A DNA stretch of 64,000 bases, from assembly GCF_048403405.1 (NCBI RefSeq), contig NZ_CP183129.1; one strand, given 5' to 3'. The position numbers and the translations under genes are program-made. The DNA comes from Escherichia coli. GTDB lineage: Bacteria; Pseudomonadota; Gammaproteobacteria; Enterobacterales; Enterobacteriaceae. Below are positions 37,273-58,226 of this stretch, one piece after another; positions within the stretch are counted from its first letter, which is position 1, and each line of letters starts with the position of its first letter. The notes below the pieces were generated by a model that searched no databases, was not told where the DNA came from, and saw only the letters and a list, made by a program, of their open reading frames with translations.

Positions 37273-37668
37273 TTACCGAGTTGCTAATTTGCAACTCGCT
37301 TTTTCGTACTTACTGATAGTGATCTCGACCTTCCCCTCCGGGATAACCGGTCCCCACTCCACCAGCATTCTTTTCACCTGACTGTCGTCTTCCCACACAC
37401 CCGCGTGGGTCAGGGCGTCAAACAGCGCCTTGTTATAGTTGTCCAGATCGCGGATCCGGTTATCCGGAGGAAACAACACGATCTCCACTGAAGCAGGTGC
37501 CGACGTTGGTTTTGGCAGACGACGTAACTGCTCAACTATTGCTGCACACGCCGCGCTCTGGAATTTTCGCCCCGCCGCGCTTATCAGGCTCTTACCAGCA
37601 AACGCCCCTTTGTTGGGGTGTCGCCAGTACGTGTTCACGCTGGTCGGAAAAGGCAGGATCAGCTTCAT
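37273..37668 (-). CDS. rusA: Holliday junction resolvase RusA
   Basis: 131 aa; RDLDNYNKALFDALTHAGVWEDDSQV motif. Confidence 0.85.
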   Translation of the reverse strand: MKLILPFPTSVNTYWRHPNKGAFAGKSLISAAGRKFQSAACAAIVEQLRRLPKPTSAPASVEIVLFPPDNRIRDLDNYNKALFDALTHAGVWEDDSQVKRMLVEWGPVIPEGKVEITISKYEKASCKLATR

Positions 37669-37991
37669 ACTTTCAGGCCCCTCTCATGTAACCAGTGGGC
37701 TGCACGCAGCCTGGCGTTTTCCTCACCGGCAAGCAGTGAGCGGATAATCCCGACCGCCTCGCTGTCGTCGTCCTTCACCACGGTATGAAGCGTGATCCCC
37801 CGGGCCACACCACGCTTTATCGTGATGACGCCTTTTTTCTCCAGTGCGCGAAGATGCTCCACCGCTGCATTCACTGAACGGTATCCCAGCATGGTTGCCA
37901 CCTCCTGATTGGTTGGCGGGAAGCCACGTTCTTTCTGATAAGAAATCAGCATATCCAGCACCTGCTGCTGGCATTGAGTTAAAGTCGTCAT
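37665..37991 (-). CDS. LexA-type winged-helix DNA-binding protein (no peptidase domain)
   Basis: 108 aa; LTQCQQQVLDMLISYQKERGFPPTNQEVATMLGYRSVNAAVEHLRALEKKGVI. Confidence 0.6.
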   Translation of the reverse strand: MTTLTQCQQQVLDMLISYQKERGFPPTNQEVATMLGYRSVNAAVEHLRALEKKGVITIKRGVARGITLHTVVKDDDSEAVGIIRSLLAGEENARLRAAHWLHERGLKV

Positions 37992-38641
37992 GCCGCCATC
38001 TCCCTGACCAGTTTTTCCGCCTGCTGGCGAACCTGCGCCAGAAACGCCTCACCACATGCCTCAAGTTCATCGCGCCCGATGTAGCTGATTGCCGGTCCCT
38101 TCCAGGTCTTGTCGAAAACAGCAATAGCACCAGCGAAGAAAGCGCCTGTCGGCACCTGCTTCTCATCTTTCGGGATAAACCAGGCAGGCAGTTCAAAACC
38201 AATACGCCCGCGAATAAAAGCAATATGATCTGCATCTTCCGGCCACCACACTTCGCTGGTGGCAGCTTTGATCAGGAAAACATAGCGCCCGCCTTTATCA
38301 CGCATGGCACTGGCATGTTTCATGATGTAACGCATGCCGGTGATGTATTGCCCCTCATGCTGACTGGCGCGGCTGTATGGGGGATTACCAAAGGCAGCAC
38401 CTTTAAGCTCCGCAAGACGTTCTGACCAGTCATGCGCCAGCGCGTTGTCTTCCGCCGTGTAATACGCGGTACATTTGGCGTTATCACCGTCAGTAAACAG
38501 ATCCAGGACAAACGGGCCAAACAGGGTGTTAATTCCCCAGAAAATGTTATCCGGCGTGCGCCACTGATCGCCCACTTCCTTCAGTTCATGGGCTGGTTTG
38601 TTCCGCAGCTCCACCAGCTCCTGGCAATATTTATTACTCAT
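37988..38641 (-). CDS. phage DNA N6-adenine methyltransferase (Dam family)
   Basis: NPPY motif (GNPPYSR); start set at MSNKYCQ. Confidence 0.8.
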   Translation of the reverse strand: MSNKYCQELVELRNKPAHELKEVGDQWRTPDNIFWGINTLFGPFVLDLFTDGDNAKCTAYYTAEDNALAHDWSERLAELKGAAFGNPPYSRASQHEGQYITGMRYIMKHASAMRDKGGRYVFLIKAATSEVWWPEDADHIAFIRGRIGFELPAWFIPKDEKQVPTGAFFAGAIAVFDKTWKGPAISYIGRDELEACGEAFLAQVRQQAEKLVREMAA

Positions 38642-39129
38642 TAAGCCCCCACGTAATTCCCTGACAGATACCACTCATCACCCGATACAGCGCGCTTGCT
38701 GCTTTTCCGTAAGCACCGCTCACGACGTGCCAGAAAATTGTTTCGTTCTGGCTGGGAGTGGCTTTCACGGAATGCCGCCATCCACACGGTTGCAGCACGA
38801 CGGTATAAGCCCCTGGACTCCAGTTCTTCAGCCTGGCGGGTCAGGCACAAAATCACCCGGGGATCGTTAGTGCCGACATAGAAATTGCGCACAGGTCTGG
38901 TTTCACGAACTGGTTGTGGTTCCGGCTCCTGCGCTCTCTCAGTCAGGCGCGGGAAATGTCTGCGTGTATATCCTTCACAACGGTGAGCCACACGCCCACT
39001 CTGACGTAACTTGCTTGCAGACTGCAGAACGCGCTGCCGTGAGTAACCTGCAAAAGCATCCGCAATGTCTCCGGAAGTACACCCCGGATGGGCTTCAATG
39101 AATTTCTGAACTTCATTCAAAAGACTCAT
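38641..39129 (-). CDS. PerC-family-like transcriptional regulator
   Basis: C-terminal LESRGLYRRAATVWMAAF...RRERCLR resembles the PerC/Pch signature. Confidence 0.5.
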   Translation of the reverse strand: MSLLNEVQKFIEAHPGCTSGDIADAFAGYSRQRVLQSASKLRQSGRVAHRCEGYTRRHFPRLTERAQEPEPQPVRETRPVRNFYVGTNDPRVILCLTRQAEELESRGLYRRAATVWMAAFRESHSQPERNNFLARRERCLRKSSKRAVSGDEWYLSGNYVGA

Positions 39130-39131
39130 GA

Positions 39132-39950
39132 TTATCCCCTGAATCCTGCCGGGATCTGGCTGTAGTCCACGTTGTCGTAACTGGCTTTGAAGTACGGGTC
39201 CTCGCGTCTGGCTGCAGATACCGCAGGAACTTCCCAGGATTCTTCGAAATGACGATCCGGACCAAAGAACGTGACAGCCTGTTTCACAAATTGTGTGCCG
39301 CTGTTACCCATCGCAGATACCCAGCCCGCGTAGCGTTTCACACCTTCCAGCATGGTTTCGGGTTTTACCCCCTCATTCAAACGGGCTTTCCAGGCTTTGA
39401 AGGCTGCAGATTTTGAATTGCCACCAGCACGTTTGGGGTATGCCAGCCATGCCTGCTCAAACTCCGGAGAGTATTCCGGTCGGTTTGAACGAACTCGCAC
39501 AGACTCATCAGCAGATGCACCAACAGCTATTGGTTCATTGACTGGTTCTTTGACTGGTTCAAAAGAGTGACTGGTTCTGGGTGAATCTCCTGCACCACCC
39601 CCTGGTGCAACTCCTGCACTACCTGGTGAATTTGCTGCACCAGATAGTGAATTATTTGCACTACCCCCTAGTGAATCTCCTGCACCATCAAGATGAAGGA
39701 GATAGATATTACTTGAGTTACCTTTTTCACCTTTCCGGGTGACTTTTTTTACCAGCCCGGAATCACAAAGGGCCGCAATATGATTCATCACAGAACGTTT
39801 GCTAATCTCGCACTGGTCAGCAATATGCTGGTAGCTGGGCCAGCACTCACCCTGATCGCTGGCATTATCAGCCAGCTTGATCAGAACCAGTTTTCGCAAT
39901 GGATTACCCACTCGAATTTTCATCGCTTTAACCATCAGCTCCATACTCAT
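39132..39950 (-). CDS. replication initiation protein (O-like N-terminal wHTH; DnaT-like C-terminus)
   Basis: C-terminus ...YSQIPAGFRG parallels host DnaT ...[10 protein letters not shown] encoded at 56947..57486; start uncertain. Confidence 0.7.
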   Translation of the reverse strand: MSMELMVKAMKIRVGNPLRKLVLIKLADNASDQGECWPSYQHIADQCEISKRSVMNHIAALCDSGLVKKVTRKGEKGNSSNIYLLHLDGAGDSLGGSANNSLSGAANSPGSAGVAPGGGAGDSPRTSHSFEPVKEPVNEPIAVGASADESVRVRSNRPEYSPEFEQAWLAYPKRAGGNSKSAAFKAWKARLNEGVKPETMLEGVKRYAGWVSAMGNSGTQFVKQAVTFFGPDRHFEESWEVPAVSAARREDPYFKASYDNVDYSQIPAGFRG

Positions 39951-40183
39951 GCTGCACCTCCGAGATGCTTCATGTTTTTTCCGGAGCAAAAGGCTATAAG
40001 CGGCATACTGATGCGGTAATTACGGCCCAGCGGTTCACAAATCACCTTCTGACATTCACGGTCAACCAGGCTAACACGTAGAACATGCCCTGCAGGCGTG
40101 GTGTACCACTGCCCAACTGTAGGAATTGATGTTTTTTTACGCTGAAGCAAACGGCAAATATTGAGGATCAACGGATTAAGCAT
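39947..40183 (-). CDS. hypothetical protein (78 aa), translationally coupled in the replication operon
   Basis: Overlaps neighbouring ORFs at both ends. Confidence 0.45.
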   Translation of the reverse strand: MLNPLILNICRLLQRKKTSIPTVGQWYTTPAGHVLRVSLVDRECQKVICEPLGRNYRISMPLIAFCSGKNMKHLGGAA

Positions 40184-41012
40184 GACGATGCCCTCCGCTG
40201 ATATTCAGGAGACGGTGAATATGAAAATTAGCCTTATCCGCCAGACGAATACGTTCAGCCTGCAAGTTAAGAAGGGTTTCTACCAAAACCTGATGCGCCT
40301 GCGGATCCGAAAGAGTTACCTTGCGCAGAGCACGTAGTGCAGTTGTTACATAACTGAGTTTATGTAAGTCTTCATCATTCAGACGAGTGAGGGCTGGGAC
40401 AGTAGCCATGATGGCAGCCTCCGATAACAGTGAATTACCTTCACCACCGGAAACGCCAATTTCGCTGGTGGTGAACTGAACGGGGTTGGCGTAACCGGCG
40501 TTATCGGAAACCGGCGCACCTTTCGGTGCCCCCGTCCAGCCCACCATAATTTGGGTGTGCACAGACGCAGACGATAAAAAAGACGCTGGCGCGTCATATA
40601 TCGCCGATAACATTTCCAGGACGCCAATCCCGTCACCCGCTTTATAAGGTGCCTGAACAGTGTAACGTCCCGGAATGGCAGAATCAATGTGCTGGTGGTC
40701 CTTCACACTCAACAAAATCACGCCTGAATTTCCACAAAGGACTAAAGCACTCATGCGGGTAGTCTTTGCGAAGATAGATAACGCGCTGTGTTTCTGGTTC
40801 CCAACGAATAACATGGACATAAAGCCCTCTTCCGTCACGAAACCAGCGGTTAAGTTCCCGCACAACTCGCCCCCCACAGTCAGGTAAAGTTCTCTGTGGT
40901 TACTTACAGCCAGGTAATTTGGTAATCTGCATTCATGCCGTAACAACAGGTGTTCAGCGACACTGACCACCAGCTGTTGCGACAAACGGTTATTTGCCGT
41001 TAAACTGTTCAT
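40176..41012 (-). CDS. hypothetical protein (278 aa), translationally coupled between the CII-like and O-like genes
   Basis: ATGA overlap with the upstream gene; no recognisable motif. Confidence 0.5.
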   Translation of the reverse strand: MNSLTANNRLSQQLVVSVAEHLLLRHECRLPNYLAVSNHRELYLTVGGELCGNLTAGFVTEEGFMSMLFVGNQKHSALSIFAKTTRMSALVLCGNSGVILLSVKDHQHIDSAIPGRYTVQAPYKAGDGIGVLEMLSAIYDAPASFLSSASVHTQIMVGWTGAPKGAPVSDNAGYANPVQFTTSEIGVSGGEGNSLLSEAAIMATVPALTRLNDEDLHKLSYVTTALRALRKVTLSDPQAHQVLVETLLNLQAERIRLADKANFHIHRLLNISGGHRHA

Positions 41013-41572
41013 GCGTTAGTTTCTCCACAGACACAAAACGCCACGACGCCCGGAGCTGCACACTCGCGGGCGTCACTCTTTTCTGGAGCGCAAAAGATTT
41101 TGTAGACCAGTGCTGCATGCTCTTGGAGCTTCGAAATTGACAGATACAACTCATCATTAATTGCTGTCTGCTCGTGTGGCTCCACGACCCCATCTTCGAT
41201 TGCCGAACGAATCTGCTTTGAGTAATTCCCGATCTGTTCGATGACTTCCAGCAGGCGCTGGTTTATATCGGCGTTCTCTACTTCCTCAATTTCAGGAAGC
41301 GATACGAACACCCCACCAGCAGACTGTGCGACAGCATCCGCAATGTAGTGAGTGCCAGCCGCGCGCTGTAAAACCATTGCCCATCCCAGCGGGAAAATCT
41401 GATCGCCATCGGCACGAAGGCGGTTAAATAATGCGTTCTCTGTTACATCCAGCCAGTCAGCTGCTTCAGCGTAACCACCCGGCAACGCTGCGATAGTTTT
41501 TCTGACAGCTTTCACGTACCACTCAGGCTGTTTTTCTACTTTCCAGTGATACTTACCCACGGTTAGCCTCAT
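41009..41572 (-). CDS. CII-like regulator (YdaT-family-like)
   Basis: 187 aa, immediately downstream of the cro-like gene. Confidence 0.5.
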   Translation of the reverse strand: MRLTVGKYHWKVEKQPEWYVKAVRKTIAALPGGYAEAADWLDVTENALFNRLRADGDQIFPLGWAMVLQRAAGTHYIADAVAQSAGGVFVSLPEIEEVENADINQRLLEVIEQIGNYSKQIRSAIEDGVVEPHEQTAINDELYLSISKLQEHAALVYKIFCAPEKSDARECAAPGVVAFCVCGETNA

Positions 41573-41603: not shown

Positions 41604-41804
41604 TTAATCTTTCGGATAGATATCCGGTCTTAAGTCAGATTTCGTAATTGCACCTGACGTGCATTGCTCAAGTTTTTTCGCCAGCACAAAACTGGCTTTT
41701 TTATAACCATTGAAAACCAGCCGTAAGTAGCCAGGTGTTGAGCCAACTTTTCCGGCCAACTCGCCCTGCTGTTCTTTGGTTAAAGAGTCCCAATACGCTT
41801 TCAT
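41604..41804 (-). CDS. cro: Cro-like HTH regulator (YdaS-like)
   Basis: 66 aa from MKAYWDSLTKEQQGELAGKVGSTPGYLRLV...; RBS ggagg; divergent from cI. Confidence 0.7.
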   Translation of the reverse strand: MKAYWDSLTKEQQGELAGKVGSTPGYLRLVFNGYKKASFVLAKKLEQCTSGAITKSDLRPDIYPKD

Positions 41805-43665: not shown

Positions 43666-44490
43666 ATGTCTCAGAACTTAGACGCAACCGCAATTAATCA
43701 AATCCATGCCCTTATTTCTGCTCAGGGTGTTAATGAAATTATCAGTAATATTGGTGCCGATGCTGTGGCATTGCCTGAGAATTTCCGCATTCATGATCTG
43801 GAAAAATTTAATTTAAATCGCTTCCGTTTCCGTGGTGCGCTTTCCACTGCCAGCATCGATGACTTTACCCGTTATTCTAAAGATCTTGCAGATGAAGGCA
43901 CCCGCTGCTTTATCGATGCTGATAATATGCGTGCCGTCAGTGTACTTAACCTGGGTACTATTGATGAACCAGGTCACGCAGATAACACCGCCACTCTCAA
44001 ACTGAAAAAGACAGCACCGTTCTCTGCCCTGTTGTCTGTTAACGGCGAGCGTAACTCCCAGAAGTCACTGGCAGAATGGATTGAAGACTGGGCCGACTAC
44101 CTTGTGGGCTTTGATGCTAATGGTGACACCATTCAGGCAACAAAAGCGGCTGCGGCAGTCCGTAAAATCACGATTGAAGCAAACCAGACCGCTGATTTTG
44201 AAGATAATGACTTCAGCGGCAAACGCTCCCTGATGGAATCTGTCGAAGCGAAGACCAAAGACATTATGCCAGTGGCATTTGAATTTAAATGCGTTCCGTT
44301 TGAAGGTCTGAAAGAACGTCCGTTTAAATTACGCCTCAGCATTATCACTGGCGATCGTCCTGTACTGGTTCTGCGCATTATTCAGCTGGAAGCGGTGCAG
44401 GAAGATATGGCTAACGAATTTCGTGATCTGCTTGTTGAGAAATTCAAAGACAGCAAAGTAGAAACCTTTATTGGTACTTTCACCGCCTGA
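43666..44490 (+). CDS. YfdQ-like protein
   Basis: 274 aa; same length and position as CPS-53 yfdQ, upstream of an HD-domain gene. Confidence 0.5.
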
Positions 44491-46597: not shown

Positions 46598-47317
46598 TTA
46601 AATCTCTGTTTCTTTTCCTGTTCGGCTCAACCAATACTCCATTGTTTGAGTATGAATCTTTTCAGCGTATATTTTTTCAATTAATTTATCTCGTTTTTCT
46701 TTAATGACTTTACGCAGTGAATCATATAACATAAAAAAACGTTCATCATCTTCCTCATTATTACCGTAATTTATTTGATTGAGTTCTGAAAAAATATGAT
46801 AGCACCTTTTTTTCTTGGTCCCCGGCAATATTAAAACCAAGCCGCATTGATCATATTCAAATTCACCTTTATGGGCAGCAAAGTTATGTCTAACATTCAT
46901 AATAGAATCATGTAAATCTCTGTATTTTTCTGGCACATGCTTTCTCTGCAATGTGAATCGACGCCCTTTCGCCTCTGTAAAACACTTACCGTAAGTAACA
47001 ACTTTTGATATAAATAAAGACTTTAATATTAGATTCTTTTCTAAATCAGGATAAATAAAGTGTTGTTCTCTATTAATGTTATTACAAATGTTTTTTATTA
47101 TATTCTCCCAACCAATAACATTCCGAAGATCTTTATCCAGCAACTGTAAGGCCACATATTGTTCTACAAAGCGGCCTTTTAAAGGTATTCGTGGTAATAT
47201 TACACCTTTCTGCTTATAAACTCTTTCTATCGTATTATCTGGATATTGGATCTTCCTTATTTCTATTCCGTCTTCTTCTGATACCCTTACTAATGGTTCA
47301 TTTTTTAACTTTGACAT
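46598..47317 (-). CDS. hypothetical protein (239 aa) in an AT-rich moron between xis and int
   Basis: Visibly AT-rich relative to neighbours; own upstream intergenic region of 283 bp; R-x5-H motif at residues 143-149. Confidence 0.6.
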   Translation of the reverse strand: MSKLKNEPLVRVSEEDGIEIRKIQYPDNTIERVYKQKGVILPRIPLKGRFVEQYVALQLLDKDLRNVIGWENIIKNICNNINREQHFIYPDLEKNLILKSLFISKVVTYGKCFTEAKGRRFTLQRKHVPEKYRDLHDSIMNVRHNFAAHKGEFEYDQCGLVLILPGTKKKRCYHIFSELNQINYGNNEEDDERFFMLYDSLRKVIKEKRDKLIEKIYAEKIHTQTMEYWLSRTGKETEI

Positions 47318-47602: not shown

Positions 47603-48826
47603 TCAGTTTGAATCAGAGATAGTACAATTAACAATCGATTCAACCCTCTTCCACCATGCCAGGTAAGCTTTACGCTGTTCTTCTAGATAATCGCTCTTAT
47701 CATAAACTTGCCATACCCCTGGCAGCTTATGACCAAGCATAATTTCTGCGATATGAGGCGCAGTAAGATCAGAAAAATTTGTTCGTGCTGTCCGTCTCAA
47801 GTCATGAAGAGACCAATGAGGGAATTGATATCCTAAACGCCGCCACGCGTACTGCATTAAATTGTAAGGCAGCGACTGTAATGATGTCCTACCGACTGGC
47901 TCCCTGCTTCCTTCCTTAGTAAAAAGCATATCGGAACCGTTGTTCATAGAGATAACGTATTTTATAAGCTCTTCAACCGGTTCAATAATGGGCCGCTTTA
48001 GCGGTTCGCCTGTTATGTCCCCTGTCTTATGTCGTTCAGGTGGTACAGTCCATACCTTATTTATGAAATCAAAATCACCCACCCTAGCAGTAATTAGCTC
48101 CGAACTACGGCAACCAAAATGCAGTAATAGTTTAATGAAGGCCCTGTATTTGGGAACCATTCTAGAGCCATCGATCGCAGCATAAAGAATTTTAATTTCA
48201 TCGTGTGTCAGAAACCGTTTCTTCTGACCTTTACGGATATCCATATCTTTACCCGTGATATCCGACAGCGGGCGAGTTTCAATAAGCTTTCTCTTATACG
48301 CCCAGACATGGGCCTGCTTTGCGTTAATTAGCAATCGGTCTGCTATTGCTGGAGTCTTAGTGCTAAGAGGCTCCAGGACTTCTAACCAATCATGCAATGT
48401 AGCTGCATCGTGAGGGATATTCCCGATTTTAGAGAACAGGTGCAGCTCAAACGAGCGGAGTATCTGTTCAGAACTCTTTTTATTTTTTACACAATATGCT
48501 TCATACCAGGCACGGATCACAGACTCTACCGTCATGGCTTCAGTAGCTTTTCGTTTTTCAGCCTGCTTGACCAATCGTGGATTACGGTTTGACTCGAGTT
48601 CACCACGGAGACGGATAACTTCTTCTCTGGCCTCTTTTAATCCAGTTGCCGGGTAAGTTCCGATATCAAGACGCTCACCTTTCCCTGCCCATTGATAACG
48701 ATATTGGAACACTACGCGACCTTTCGGTGATACTCTGACAGACAGACCATCACGATCGGATTTAACCAAAACCTTATCACGTTCCTTTCCAACGACTGAA
48801 CGCAACCACGCATCAGACAGCGCCAT
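47603..48826 (-). CDS. int: tyrosine integrase (P4-type)
   Basis: 407 aa; catalytic R (GCRSSEL), H-x-x-R (HDLRRT) and C-terminal Y. Confidence 0.95.
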   Translation of the reverse strand: MALSDAWLRSVVGKERDKVLVKSDRDGLSVRVSPKGRVVFQYRYQWAGKGERLDIGTYPATGLKEAREEVIRLRGELESNRNPRLVKQAEKRKATEAMTVESVIRAWYEAYCVKNKKSSEQILRSFELHLFSKIGNIPHDAATLHDWLEVLEPLSTKTPAIADRLLINAKQAHVWAYKRKLIETRPLSDITGKDMDIRKGQKKRFLTHDEIKILYAAIDGSRMVPKYRAFIKLLLHFGCRSSELITARVGDFDFINKVWTVPPERHKTGDITGEPLKRPIIEPVEELIKYVISMNNGSDMLFTKEGSREPVGRTSLQSLPYNLMQYAWRRLGYQFPHWSLHDLRRTARTNFSDLTAPHIAEIMLGHKLPGVWQVYDKSDYLEEQRKAYLAWWKRVESIVNCTISDSN

Positions 48827-56840: not shown

Positions 56841-56946
56841 AATTGCCTCGCTTAAGCACACGGATGAGAGACAGCCTCCTCTCCTCCGTGTGTTACTATA
56901 AAAGTTATCTCCCTTCTCGTTCATCGTTCCATATTTGAGAAACAGT

Positions 56947-57486
56947 ATGTCTTCCAGAGTTTTGACCCCGGACGTCGTTGGTATTGACGCCCTGGTACAC
57001 GATCACCAAACCGTTCTGGCAAAAGCTGAAGGCGGTGTGGTTGCCGTATTTGCTAACAATGCCCCGGCGTTTTATGCCGTCACGCCTGCACGCCTGGCTG
57101 AACTGCTAGCGCTGGAAGAAAAGCTGGCGCGTCCGGGAAGCGATGTCGCTCTGGACGATCAACTCTATCAGGAACCGCAAGTTGCTCCCGTTGCTGTACC
57201 CATGGGGAAATTCGCCATGTATCCGGACTGGCAACCCGATGCCGACTTTATCCGCCTGGCGGCGCTATGGGGCGTGGCACTAAGAGAGCCGGTGACCACC
57301 GAAGAACTGGCCTCATTCATTGCCTACTGGCAGGCGGAAGGTAAAGTCTTTCACCATGTGCAGTGGCAACAAAAACTGGCGCGCAGCCTGCAAATCGGTC
57401 GTGCCAGCAACGGCGGACTGCCGAAACGAGATGTGAATACGGTCAGTGAACCTGACAGCCAAATTCCACCAGGATTCAGAGGGTAA
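56947..57486 (+). CDS. dnaT: primosomal protein DnaT
   Basis: 179 aa, ends ...SQIPPGFRG. Confidence 0.9.
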
Positions 57487-57488
57487 CG

Positions 57489-58226
57489 ATGAAAAACGTT
57501 GGCGACCTGATGCAACGCCTGCAAAAAATGATGCCTGCCCATATCAAACCTGCGTTCAAAACGGGTGAAGAACTACTGGCCTGGCAGAAAGAACAAGGGG
57601 CGATCCGCTCCGCCGCTCTCGAACGTGAAAATCGGGCGATGAAAATGCAGCGCACCTTTAACCGCTCCGGTATTCGTCCACTGCATCAGAACTGCTCCTT
57701 TGAGAACTATCGCGTTGAGTGTGAAGGGCAGATGAATGCGTTAAGCAAAGCGCGCCAGTATGTCGAAGAGTTTGACGGCAACATCGCCAGCTTCATCTTT
57801 TCTGGTAAGCCAGGAACCGGCAAAAACCATCTGGCGGCGGCAATCTGCAACGAGCTGCTGCTACGCGGTAAATCCGTATTGATTATCACCGTGGCCGATA
57901 TTATGTCGGCGATGAAAGATACCTTCAGGAATAGCGGTACCAGCGAAGAACAACTGCTTAACGATCTGAGCAATGTTGATCTGCTGGTGATCGATGAGAT
58001 CGGCGTGCAAACCGAATCGAAATACGAAAAAGTGATCATCAACCAGATCGTCGATCGCCGCTCTTCTTCCAAACGCCCAACCGGGATGCTGACCAACAGT
58101 AATATGGAAGAGATGACCAAGTTGCTGGGCGAACGCGTGATGGACCGTATGCGCCTGGGTAACAGTTTGTGGGTGATCTTCAACTGGGATAGCTACCGTA
58201 GCCGGGTAACGGGTAAAGAGTATTAA
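57489..58226 (+). CDS. dnaC: helicase loader DnaC
   Basis: 245 aa; Walker A GKPGTGKNHLA. Confidence 0.95.
   Translation: MKNVGDLMQRLQKMMPAHIKPAFKTGEELLAWQKEQGAIRSAALERENRAMKMQRTFNRSGIRPLHQNCSFENYRVECEGQMNALSKARQYVEEFDGNIASFIFSGKPGTGKNHLAAAICNELLLRGKSVLIITVADIMSAMKDTFRNSGTSEEQLLNDLSNVDLLVIDEIGVQTESKYEKVIINQIVDRRSSSKRPTGMLTNSNMEEMTKLLGERVMDRMRLGNSLWVIFNWDSYRSRVTGKEY

Follow-up and report, generated by a model that had tools for sequence, protein, structure and literature searches.

The DNA analysed here, a stretch of 64,000 nucleotides of Escherichia coli (contig NZ_CP183129.1; 'the window', with coordinates counted from its first letter), covers a lambdoid prophage together with neighbouring host chromosome, and our subject is the phage initiator gene rep in the early region of this prophage and a short C-terminal tail that its product shares with the host restart protein DnaT. 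Structural genes occupy positions 1-28000 and the integrase gene 47603-48826, and host genes, among them three tRNA-Leu genes, dnaT and dnaC, follow from about 49200 onward. The prophage is near-identical to E. coli phages, and dnaT and dnaC of the window match E. coli equivalog models. With 99.8% identity of the region in question (39132-41012) to Escherichia phage 2H10 and 97% to phages Ayreon and SfV (orf36-39), the prophage is, by similarity, of the SfV/2H10-like lambdoid kind and its replication locus of an already sequenced, ordinary phage type. On the minus strand, the genes follow each other in the order cro-like gene, YmfL-family gene, an open reading frame (ORF) of 278 amino acids (aa), a 78-aa ORF, rep, a 162-aa PerC/ANR-like gene, an N6-adenine methyltransferase gene, a gene for a protein with only the N-terminal domain of LexA, and RusA. 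The gene in the CII position, which a first reading of the letters without database searches (here called the sequence-only reading) had taken for CII-like, belongs to the YmfL family; its start at 41560 is the one annotated in phage 2H10.

The rep gene runs from an ATG at 39950 to a stop codon at 39132-39134, and its counterparts in phages 2H10, Ayreon and SfV (orf39) are annotated 'replication protein'; a longer, TTG-initiated version of the ORF (to 39989) is probably not used. The N-terminal winged-helix domain of Rep is followed by a disordered linker rich in Gly, Ser and Ala (residues 91-155), and the DNA encoding this linker holds five iterons that form the putative origin (table 1). The iteron core motif is unique to this array within the window, and the lengths of Rep homologues group at 250, 272 and 294 aa, in steps of 66 bp, which equal three iteron periods. 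Three direct repeats, GAACCAGTCA, adjoin the iterons, and a stretch with a GC content of 0.37-0.40 (39670-39759) overlaps the first iteron and extends beyond the array on its other side. The helical C-terminal domain belongs to a family of 4430 representative proteins (at E <= 0.001) that is without a Pfam model, and the last 25 residues or so of Rep are predicted to be disordered, with a predicted local distance difference test (pLDDT) score of 43-59 for the tail in AlphaFold2 (AF2).

In function, Rep is the O-like initiator that the sequence-only reading had seen in it, but in domain content it is not, since it matches neither the N-terminal nor the C-terminal domain of lambda O. NCBIfam gave no hit for Rep, including phage_O_Nterm (TIGR01610), a model that Gifsy-2 O hits at E = 5e-28, and a profile of the Rep family retrieved from the PDB sequences just weak matches to winged-helix proteins and DnaD N-terminal domains. 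Two relationships that the sequence-only reading had proposed for checking were not borne out by the profiles: Pfam shows no DUF1376 hit in Rep, i.e. no match to the YdaU profile (YdaU itself, however, has the tail), and neither Pfam nor NCBIfam shows a DnaT match.

The prophage was also searched for the second component that an initiator might be expected to work with, a helicase or its loader. Profile searches of every early prophage ORF of at least 150 aa found neither, and when host DnaC, two phage DnaC-like proteins, lambda P and E. coli DnaB were run by tblastn over the whole window, host dnaC at 57489 was the one match. The absence of a helicase loader noted in the sequence-only reading thus holds for DnaC-, P- and DnaB-like proteins anywhere in the prophage, and by these searches Rep is the only replication protein of the SfV-like prophage. 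Rep shows both marks of an initiator-only module, an internal origin and no helicase or loader encoded by the prophage; this category of phage replication module reportedly goes back to work by Weigel and Seitz in 2006. A literature search on the name of the category gave no match.

Rep ends in ...DNVDYSQIPAGFRG, and its last nine residues, SQIPAGFRG, share eight of nine identities with SQIPPGFRG of host DnaT, at the extreme C-terminus of both proteins. The two genes lie 17.8 kb apart, and the near-identity of the two C-termini at a distance of about 17 kb, which had drawn attention to this locus, is therefore real. A match of this quality has a chance probability of about 3e-10 (estimated by hand for uniform composition and one fixed register). 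BLASTP of Rep against DnaT aligns these last nine residues only: Rep keeps the IPxGFRG core, and the upstream half, RDxNxxSxPD, has diverged (...ASYDNVDY in Rep versus ...NTVSEPD in DnaT). Most tail codons of rep and dnaT differ at synonymous positions, which argues for conservation at the protein level, and a recent DNA exchange between the two genes was for this reason rejected as the origin of the tail. The idea that the entire C-terminal domain of Rep is a diverged DnaT domain was dropped at an hhalign probability of 9.7% (with small alignments, so that a very remote kinship would still be possible). In the host operon, dnaC starts 2 nt past the dnaT stop codon. For dnaT, an extended ORF would begin at a TTG that lies four codons before the ATG (56935-56947, plus strand); the ATG at 56947 is the likely start, because it is at residue 5 of this longer version that the alignment with the NCBIfam model begins.

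Table 1. Positions of the features discussed in the text, in the window unless an accession is given.
Feature	Position	Strand	Evidence or property
rep, 272-aa initiator	39132-39950	-	phrog_270 'replication initiation protein', E = 1.5e-88; Pfam HTH_36 and DnaD_N
Rep N-terminal winged-helix DNA-binding domain (residues 1-85)	39696-39950	-	Pfam HTH_36/DnaD_N
Putative origin, five 18-bp iterons RGTGCA-N5-TTCAC	39579-39686	-	inside the rep linker segment; spacing 24/21/21/24 bp
Three direct repeats adjoining the iterons	39539-39577	-	GC 0.43
Rep helical C-terminal domain (residues ~160-245)	39216-39473	-	AF2 pLDDT 91-95, three helices
DnaT-like C-terminal tail of Rep, DYSQIPAGFRG	39135-39167	-	BLASTP/alignment to DnaT
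Host dnaT	56947-57486	+	NCBIfam NF002770, E = 1e-104
Host DnaT tail (residues 161-179), reference copy of the motif	57427-57483	+	12 positions at least 97% conserved in 105 orthologues
Host dnaC, sole DnaC-type loader of the window	57489-58226	+	NCBIfam NF005931, E = 8e-149; tblastn
Tail-bearing RPA-family initiator, plasmid pKPC3_SZ	NZ_KU302800.1 1-1029
Tail-bearing Rep_3/RepM-like initiator, Serratia plasmid	NZ_CP132300.1
p278, 278-aa Ash-domain protein	40176-41012	-	Pfam Phage_ASH; phrog_3960, phrog_821
p78, 78-aa protein	39947-40183	-	phrog_1153; overlaps both neighbours
YmfL-family regulatory gene, CII position, first of the coupled run	41009-41560	-	NCBIfam NF041471, E = 1.9e-50; phrog_101
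cro-like gene	41604-41804	-	first in the gene order given in the text
162-aa PerC/ANR-like regulator	38641-39129	-	phrog_1324 'transcriptional activator'; NCBIfam ANR_neg_reg

Alignment of 105 DnaT orthologues, mostly from named Enterobacteriaceae genera, gives the tail consensus RDxNxxSxPDxxIPxGFRG, with R161, D162, N164, S167, P169, D170, I173, P174, G176, F177, R178 and G179 as the highly conserved positions. Conservation of the tail equals that of the folded-domain core, and by this comparison the tail is under selection in DnaT. When a degenerate DNA pattern for PDxxIPxGFRG was scanned over 2.9 million viral contigs, at least 120 loci were found. Among the matches listed, the motif was in frame and 0-9 residues from the stop codon in 119 of 120 viral loci, mostly in full-length proteins of about 250-400 aa, and the remaining one was a chance internal match. 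The motif is thus near-invariant in DnaT and recurs at the C-termini of phage initiators, and taken by itself the claim that it is a selected docking motif is very probably correct, as judged from these comparisons.

The tail is also portable. Its carriers combine several N-terminal domains with at least four types of C-terminal domain (DnaT type, Rep type, Gifsy-O type and lambda-O type), among which hhalign detected no relationship, with all probabilities below 10% (from small alignments, so that very remote kinship is possible). Divergent tails on one and the same domain are seen with lambda O, residues 171-277 of which align at 39% identity with a tail-bearing relative; homology stops about 22 residues before the end, and beyond this point lambda O ends in ...TDWIYGVDL and its relative in ...RCVNHISEPDTEIPPGFRG. 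In E. coli K-12 the tail is found on YdaU of the Rac prophage. It also occurs in two families of plasmid initiators, the RPA family (IncU/IncX6 plasmid pKPC3_SZ) and a Rep_3/RepM-like family (46-kb Serratia plasmids); pKPC3_SZ, checked in full, has no annotated loader. Each of the two plasmid initiator genes is followed by one for a 151-aa protein with apparent hydrophobic, membrane-like segments, as read from the translation.

The taxonomic range was scanned with one genome per species for about 100,000 species, which returned at least 120 rows. Among the matches listed (120 rows), 74 were full-length DnaT and most of the other 46 were prophage initiators, with some being dnaT copies cut by the edge of the locus or by the start-codon rule. 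Genuine motif rows on isolate genomes, again among the matches listed, all belong to Enterobacterales by record title. Two rows with full-length DnaT are labelled otherwise, a 'Proteobacteria bacterium' metagenome-assembled genome (MAG) and a Chryseobacterium assembly, and hits in three MAGs (Actinomycetes, Chloroflexi, Xanthobacteraceae) are chance matches in short ORFs. Initiators of the E. coli-phage type, whose tails (...QRCVNHISEPDTEIPPGFRG) are the same as at other loci, were seen on three short contigs from Collinsella and Lachnospiraceae MAGs; these contigs are probably binning contamination.

The relation between tail and loader gives the tail a more specific meaning. Among the matches listed, 109 tail-bearing viral initiators could be scored for the next gene, which was DnaC-like in 61 and no loader in 48, with not a single P-like or DnaB-like gene. 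The DnaC-like proteins have about 248 aa and are 42-54% identical to host DnaC, and their genes start 0-7 nt past the initiator stop codon, i.e. in the same layout as host dnaT-dnaC with its 2-nt spacer. Viewed from the side of the loader, of 78 initiators whose genes precede Gifsy-2-type DnaC-like genes all have IPxGF(R/K)G as their end, and none of 80 initiators upstream of lambda P-like genes has a DnaT-type tail, all of them ending in TDWIYGV(D/E)L.

Within the Rep type itself the tail can be replaced. Rep homologues at 70-75% identity as well as the initiators of phiP27 and Stx1 phage have the same C-terminal domain with other tails, either ...LSGLGxMSDxFGxSxxxLxF or ...SGFSEQDYGxxxxxW, and downstream of these lie genes for an IstB/DnaC-like ATPase (about 295 aa) and a DnaB-like helicase. 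A pattern scan for the LSGLGxMSDxFG...F tail gave 72 loci, with the tail being C-terminal in 72/72, the Rep-type C-terminal domain present in 71/72 and a loader plus helicase encoded downstream in 70/72; the other two have too little downstream DNA to judge. With a DnaT-like tail on the Rep-type domain, a helicase gene follows in 0/31 (among the matches listed). Moreover, the DnaC-like proteins beside a DnaT-type tail match the NCBI DnaC model over its full length, whereas the loaders beside the other tail match its AAA+ portion only. The LSGLGx... and SGFSEQDYG... tails have an aromatic last residue in common, and each goes with a phage-encoded IstB-like loader and a DnaB-like helicase; a related tail, ...HSGFxxRDYGxTxxPxWA, is found on more distant representatives.

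Since many tail-bearing initiators adjoin a phage DnaC-like gene, the tail, on this comparative pattern, accompanies DnaC-type loading and does not replace a loader. This modifies in part the proposal of the sequence-only reading that the initiator hijacks host primosome partners by its tail instead of encoding a P- or DnaC-like loader: the central idea, engagement of host partners by the tail where the phage has no loader of its own, is well supported on comparative grounds by a portable tail that occurs with DnaC-type loaders or none and is swapped where a phage has its own loader plus helicase, but the presence of the tail does not stand for the absence of a loader.

These relations suggest a mechanism in three steps. 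By analogy with lambda O, the winged-helix domain of Rep would bind the five iterons inside rep, and Rep would then open the origin. The C-terminal domain with its flexible tail ...SQIPAGFRG would project from the origin complex, with the tail acting as a short linear docking motif. This tail, finally, would recruit the host DnaB-DnaC helicase/loader complex to the opened origin, as DnaT is thought to do at restarted forks, and the phage would need no loader of its own because its tail recruits that of the host. In a wider sense, the PDxxIPxGFRG peptide may be the missing element of DnaT that recruits DnaB-DnaC in restart, and Enterobacterales phages and plasmids may have attached it repeatedly to unrelated origin binders in order to capture the host helicase. 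The last 20 or so residues of an initiator would then be an exchangeable address label for a loader/helicase set, with the DnaT-type tail specifying DnaC-type loading, TDWIYGVDL specifying lambda P and LSGLGxMSDxFG...F the phage's own loader and DnaB. To this reading as a whole we assign a probability of roughly 45%, i.e. a little below even odds. That the partner of the tail is host DnaB-DnaC, be it by way of DnaC or of DnaB, seems to us on the comparative data somewhat better than an even bet.

How DnaB-DnaC is recruited by the PriA-PriB-DnaT preprimosome 'remains unknown' according to a 2026 cryo-EM study (PMC13377028). In the available passages of that report, the contact of DnaT with PriA is made by its folded C-terminal domain, through a hydrophobic surface, and that with PriB by the acidic linker, and the filament density of the C-terminal domain was fitted with the crystal structure of residues 84-153, with no role being given in these passages to residues 154-179. 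As the peptide is near-invariant in DnaT and the contacts described in these passages lie elsewhere, a tail serving as the DnaB-DnaC docking element in all its carriers would be the simplest unifying idea. PriA and PriB, being established partners of DnaT in that same source, could themselves be the docking site, such that an initiator would seed a PriA-type primosome at its origin, as in phiX174 and ColE1, and DnaB-DnaC would arrive by way of host DnaT; the presence of the reference copy of the motif in a restart protein would agree with this. Yet tail carriers with unrelated C-terminal domains have neither the PriA-contact surface nor the PriB-contact linker, and the all-or-none link to DnaC-type loaders and the absence of the tail with lambda P would be left unexplained, so that docking on PriA or PriB appears unlikely.

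Several points weigh against recruitment of DnaB-DnaC by the tail. Rep keeps just the last 9-11 of the 19 consensus residues and is missed by the PD-anchored pattern, which makes the function of its own tail an extrapolation from other carriers. The counts that relate tail to loader are not phylogenetically independent, and the lambda P control set is nearly clonal; nevertheless, the pattern as read from these sequences holds across many domain architectures. As to the subunit, operon and neighbour evidence points to DnaC, DnaA and plasmid initiators contacting DnaB directly are a precedent that points to DnaB, and our data fit contact with host DnaB as well as with DnaC. An AF2 model of E. 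coli DnaC fused through a (GGGGS)6 linker to the DnaT tail, based on an alignment of 26 paired phage DnaC-like/tail rows, was poor (mean pLDDT 61.7, tail pLDDT 38-46), with no confident docking and no control run, and as a prediction it is uninformative, speaking neither for nor against DnaC. Furthermore, Ducos et al. 2026 (PMC13377028) favour the N-terminal domain of DnaT as the recruiter of DnaB/DnaC. Finally, DnaT without residues 154-179 has lower affinity for single-stranded DNA and lower cooperativity (Liu et al. 2014, PMC4132743), which offers an alternative role for the tail.

Specifically, the affinity of DnaT 84-153 for dT30 is about two-fold below that of DnaT 84-179, and its binding is less cooperative (PMC4132743), as would be expected if the tail acted within or between copies of the same protein, supporting cooperative binding to single-stranded DNA or filament formation on the melted origin with no partner at all. 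Such a homotypic role, however, would have to fit at least four C-terminal domains without detectable relationship plus two plasmid initiator folds and would not account for the correlation with loader type, and we regard it as quite unlikely.

A tag function was considered as well, i.e. that the tail is recognized by a protease or chaperone (ClpXP, Lon or DnaK/DnaJ) that steers turnover or activation of the initiator. ClpXP degrades lambda O, plasmid initiators are remodelled by DnaK/DnaJ or ClpX, and C-terminal tags are common; in addition, the tail-bearing plasmid pKPC3_SZ encodes a J-domain protein. But to our knowledge the tail has no likeness to the known classes of C-terminal ClpX tags and DnaT is not known to be unstable, and since neither the exclusive link to DnaC-type loading nor the restriction to Enterobacterales would be explained, a tag of this kind is highly improbable. 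A beta-clamp-binding motif and mimicry of the SSB tail (SSB, single-stranded DNA-binding protein) were set aside, as the Gln is not conserved among the phage versions and the Phe is not C-terminal.

Comparison with known systems places recruitment of DnaB-DnaC by the tail in context. As in lambda O/P, the iteron origin of Rep lies inside the initiator gene, in the segment for the inter-domain linker, and the gene comes after cro and the gene in the cII position; in both, DNA is bound by the N-terminal domain and the partner for helicase loading is set by the C-terminal end, for Rep by analogy. Unlike lambda, the Rep module is without a P gene and its initiator has an HTH_36/DnaD_N-like instead of a phage_O_Nterm N-terminus; the C-terminal domains of Rep and lambda O give an hhalign probability of 0.2%, and lambda O ends in ...TDWIYGVDL where Rep has the DnaT-type tail. 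The Rep module works like lambda O without P, yet by its domain content it is not of the O family, nor is Rep a homologue of DnaT beyond the tail. With the E. coli DnaT/DnaC pair it has in common IPxGFRG-COOH and the presumed job of handing DnaB-DnaC to exposed single-stranded DNA, and the dnaT-dnaC arrangement is mirrored by many phage initiator-DnaC pairs; in contrast to DnaT, Rep lacks the N-terminal oligomerization domain, the acidic PriB-binding linker and the three-helix domain PF17948. The DnaD-like initiators/loaders of Firmicutes are marked by a DnaD N-terminal winged helix plus a DnaD/DnaB C-terminal (DDBH2) domain; Rep gives a DnaD_N match in Pfam and only weak matches to DnaD N-terminal domains among PDB sequences, and could be placed among them only tentatively.

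A link between O-like proteins and DnaT has been noted before at the level of domains, with DopC combining an O-like HTH_36 N-terminal domain and a DnaT C-terminal domain (Brezellec et al. 2017, PMC5509034). The label 'primosomal protein I' is borne by some phage initiators, and like DopC they join an HTH_36 N-terminus to DnaT-derived C-terminal sequence; these proteins, however, have the folded DnaT C-terminal domain, whereas Rep shares the tail only, on another domain. In the same host clade, YdaU of the Rac prophage (YdaU/YdaV, E. coli K-12 MG1655 1421119-1422729) ends in ...VNTVSLPDSAIPPGFRG, i.e. PDSAIPPGFRG, and YdaV, which starts 7 nt past YdaU, is 50% identical to DnaC over its full length. 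Unlike Rep, YdaU has a DUF1376 N-terminus, a Gifsy-O-type C-terminal domain and its own DnaC-like partner. A more general likeness is to the C-terminal tail of SSB (DDDIPF), a general docking peptide that is short, conserved and disordered and tethers replication and repair partners: both tails have an acidic stretch followed by Ile-Pro...Phe, with the present one differing in its sequence and by RG after the Phe.

In the searchable literature we found nothing that describes the terminal motif, its occurrence on unrelated domains and on initiators of plasmids or its one-to-one relation to loader type, and for YdaV just one unrelated predicted interaction. The shared initiator/DnaT tail is real and non-random and yields a testable hypothesis on how DnaT, and likewise the mobile elements of Enterobacterales, may recruit the helicase. 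For delivery of DnaB-DnaC by PriA-PriB-DnaT, the comparative pattern points to a tail of 10-19 residues and not to the N-terminal domain, with mobile elements copying the DnaT tail exactly when they rely on DnaC-type loading. If this is true, work on binding, structure and inhibitors would have a defined peptide to use, the helicase-loading route of a phage or plasmid initiator could be predicted from its last 20 residues, and there would be a bearing on the proposed descent of dnaT-dnaC from an initiator-loader pair of a phage. Genetics should be straightforward with YdaU-YdaV in Rac, which represents a second copy of the pair in K-12.

Upstream of rep, the two ORFs p278 and p78 are coupled to their neighbours as the sequence-only reading had described, with start/stop overlaps seen directly in the DNA: YmfL stop and p278 start overlap by 4 nt (ATGA, 41009-41012), p278 and p78 by 8 nt (40176-40183), and the p78 stop and rep start form ATGA (39947-39950) with GGAGGTG just upstream. 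That neither ORF has a recognizable motif applies to p78 in so far as it has no Pfam hit, although it belongs to a PHROG family, but not to p278, residues 117-210 of which match Phage_ASH (PF10554; model positions 1-104 of 107, E = 5e-17). The PHROG matches of p278 are 'transcriptional regulator' families, and its homologues are annotated as Ant, Rha, Ash family or Icd.

Could this pair be part of the replication machinery after all, for instance as an unrecognized loader or an origin-remodelling factor? It is translationally coupled to rep, and in 80 viral loci with Rep 96-100% identical, p78 stands beside rep in 80/80, with YmfL, p278 and p78 linked to rep wherever the upstream DNA suffices, except for one locus without YmfL and p278. 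(The Rep-family locus search gave just loci of this high identity, useful for synteny but not for diversity, and degenerate DNA patterns of the tails were used instead.) Against a replication role, the Ash domain of p278 is common to proteins annotated Ant, Rha and Icd, and in every phage region examined, p78 homologues (48-79% identical) are flanked by an Ash-domain gene (with Ant, Rha or regulator as its annotation) on one side and by an initiator gene on the other, even where that initiator has a different N-terminal domain and is accompanied by its own DnaC-like and DnaB-like genes. Moreover, where Klebsiella and Citrobacter encode Rep homologues (70-75% identity), this slot is taken by a 248-aa gene without Pfam domain or by a KilA-N gene, and p78 is missing. 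The replication function that the sequence-only reading had considered for the pair is thus very unlikely. As the linkage to rep breaks at greater distance, p278/p78 is best read, from its domains and neighbourhoods, as a regulatory or antirepressor-type cassette of the early-right operon, co-transcribed and coupled with rep but not belonging to the loading machinery.

Downstream of rep, the PerC/ANR-like gene begins after 2 nt and occupies the slot of lambda P. Profile searches found in its product no AAA+ ATPase or lambda P-like domain, with only PerC/ANR-like regulator families matching; the protein has a MarR-like N-terminus and an ANR-like C-terminus, and one fusion homologue bears Pfam PF06069 plus MarR_2. 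Similar genes are also found downstream of other loader-less, tail-bearing initiators. Two further conserved proteins of the early region, phrog_210 (274 aa, 43666-44490, plus strand) and phrog_8440 (239 aa, 46598-47317, minus strand), do not resemble replication proteins. The phage N6-adenine methyltransferase gene (37988-38674, minus strand) shares 34 nt with the end of the PerC-like gene; of about 70 near-identical viral loci whose downstream DNA is long enough, most have it and about a dozen lack it. It is also unannotated in phage 2H10, and by this distribution it behaves as an insertion/deletion cassette. The 108-aa protein encoded next to it (37665-37991, minus strand) has a match to LexA that covers its N-terminal, DNA-binding part only (TIGR00498 positions 1-91), without the protease domain, and could act as a competitor or decoy at LexA boxes.

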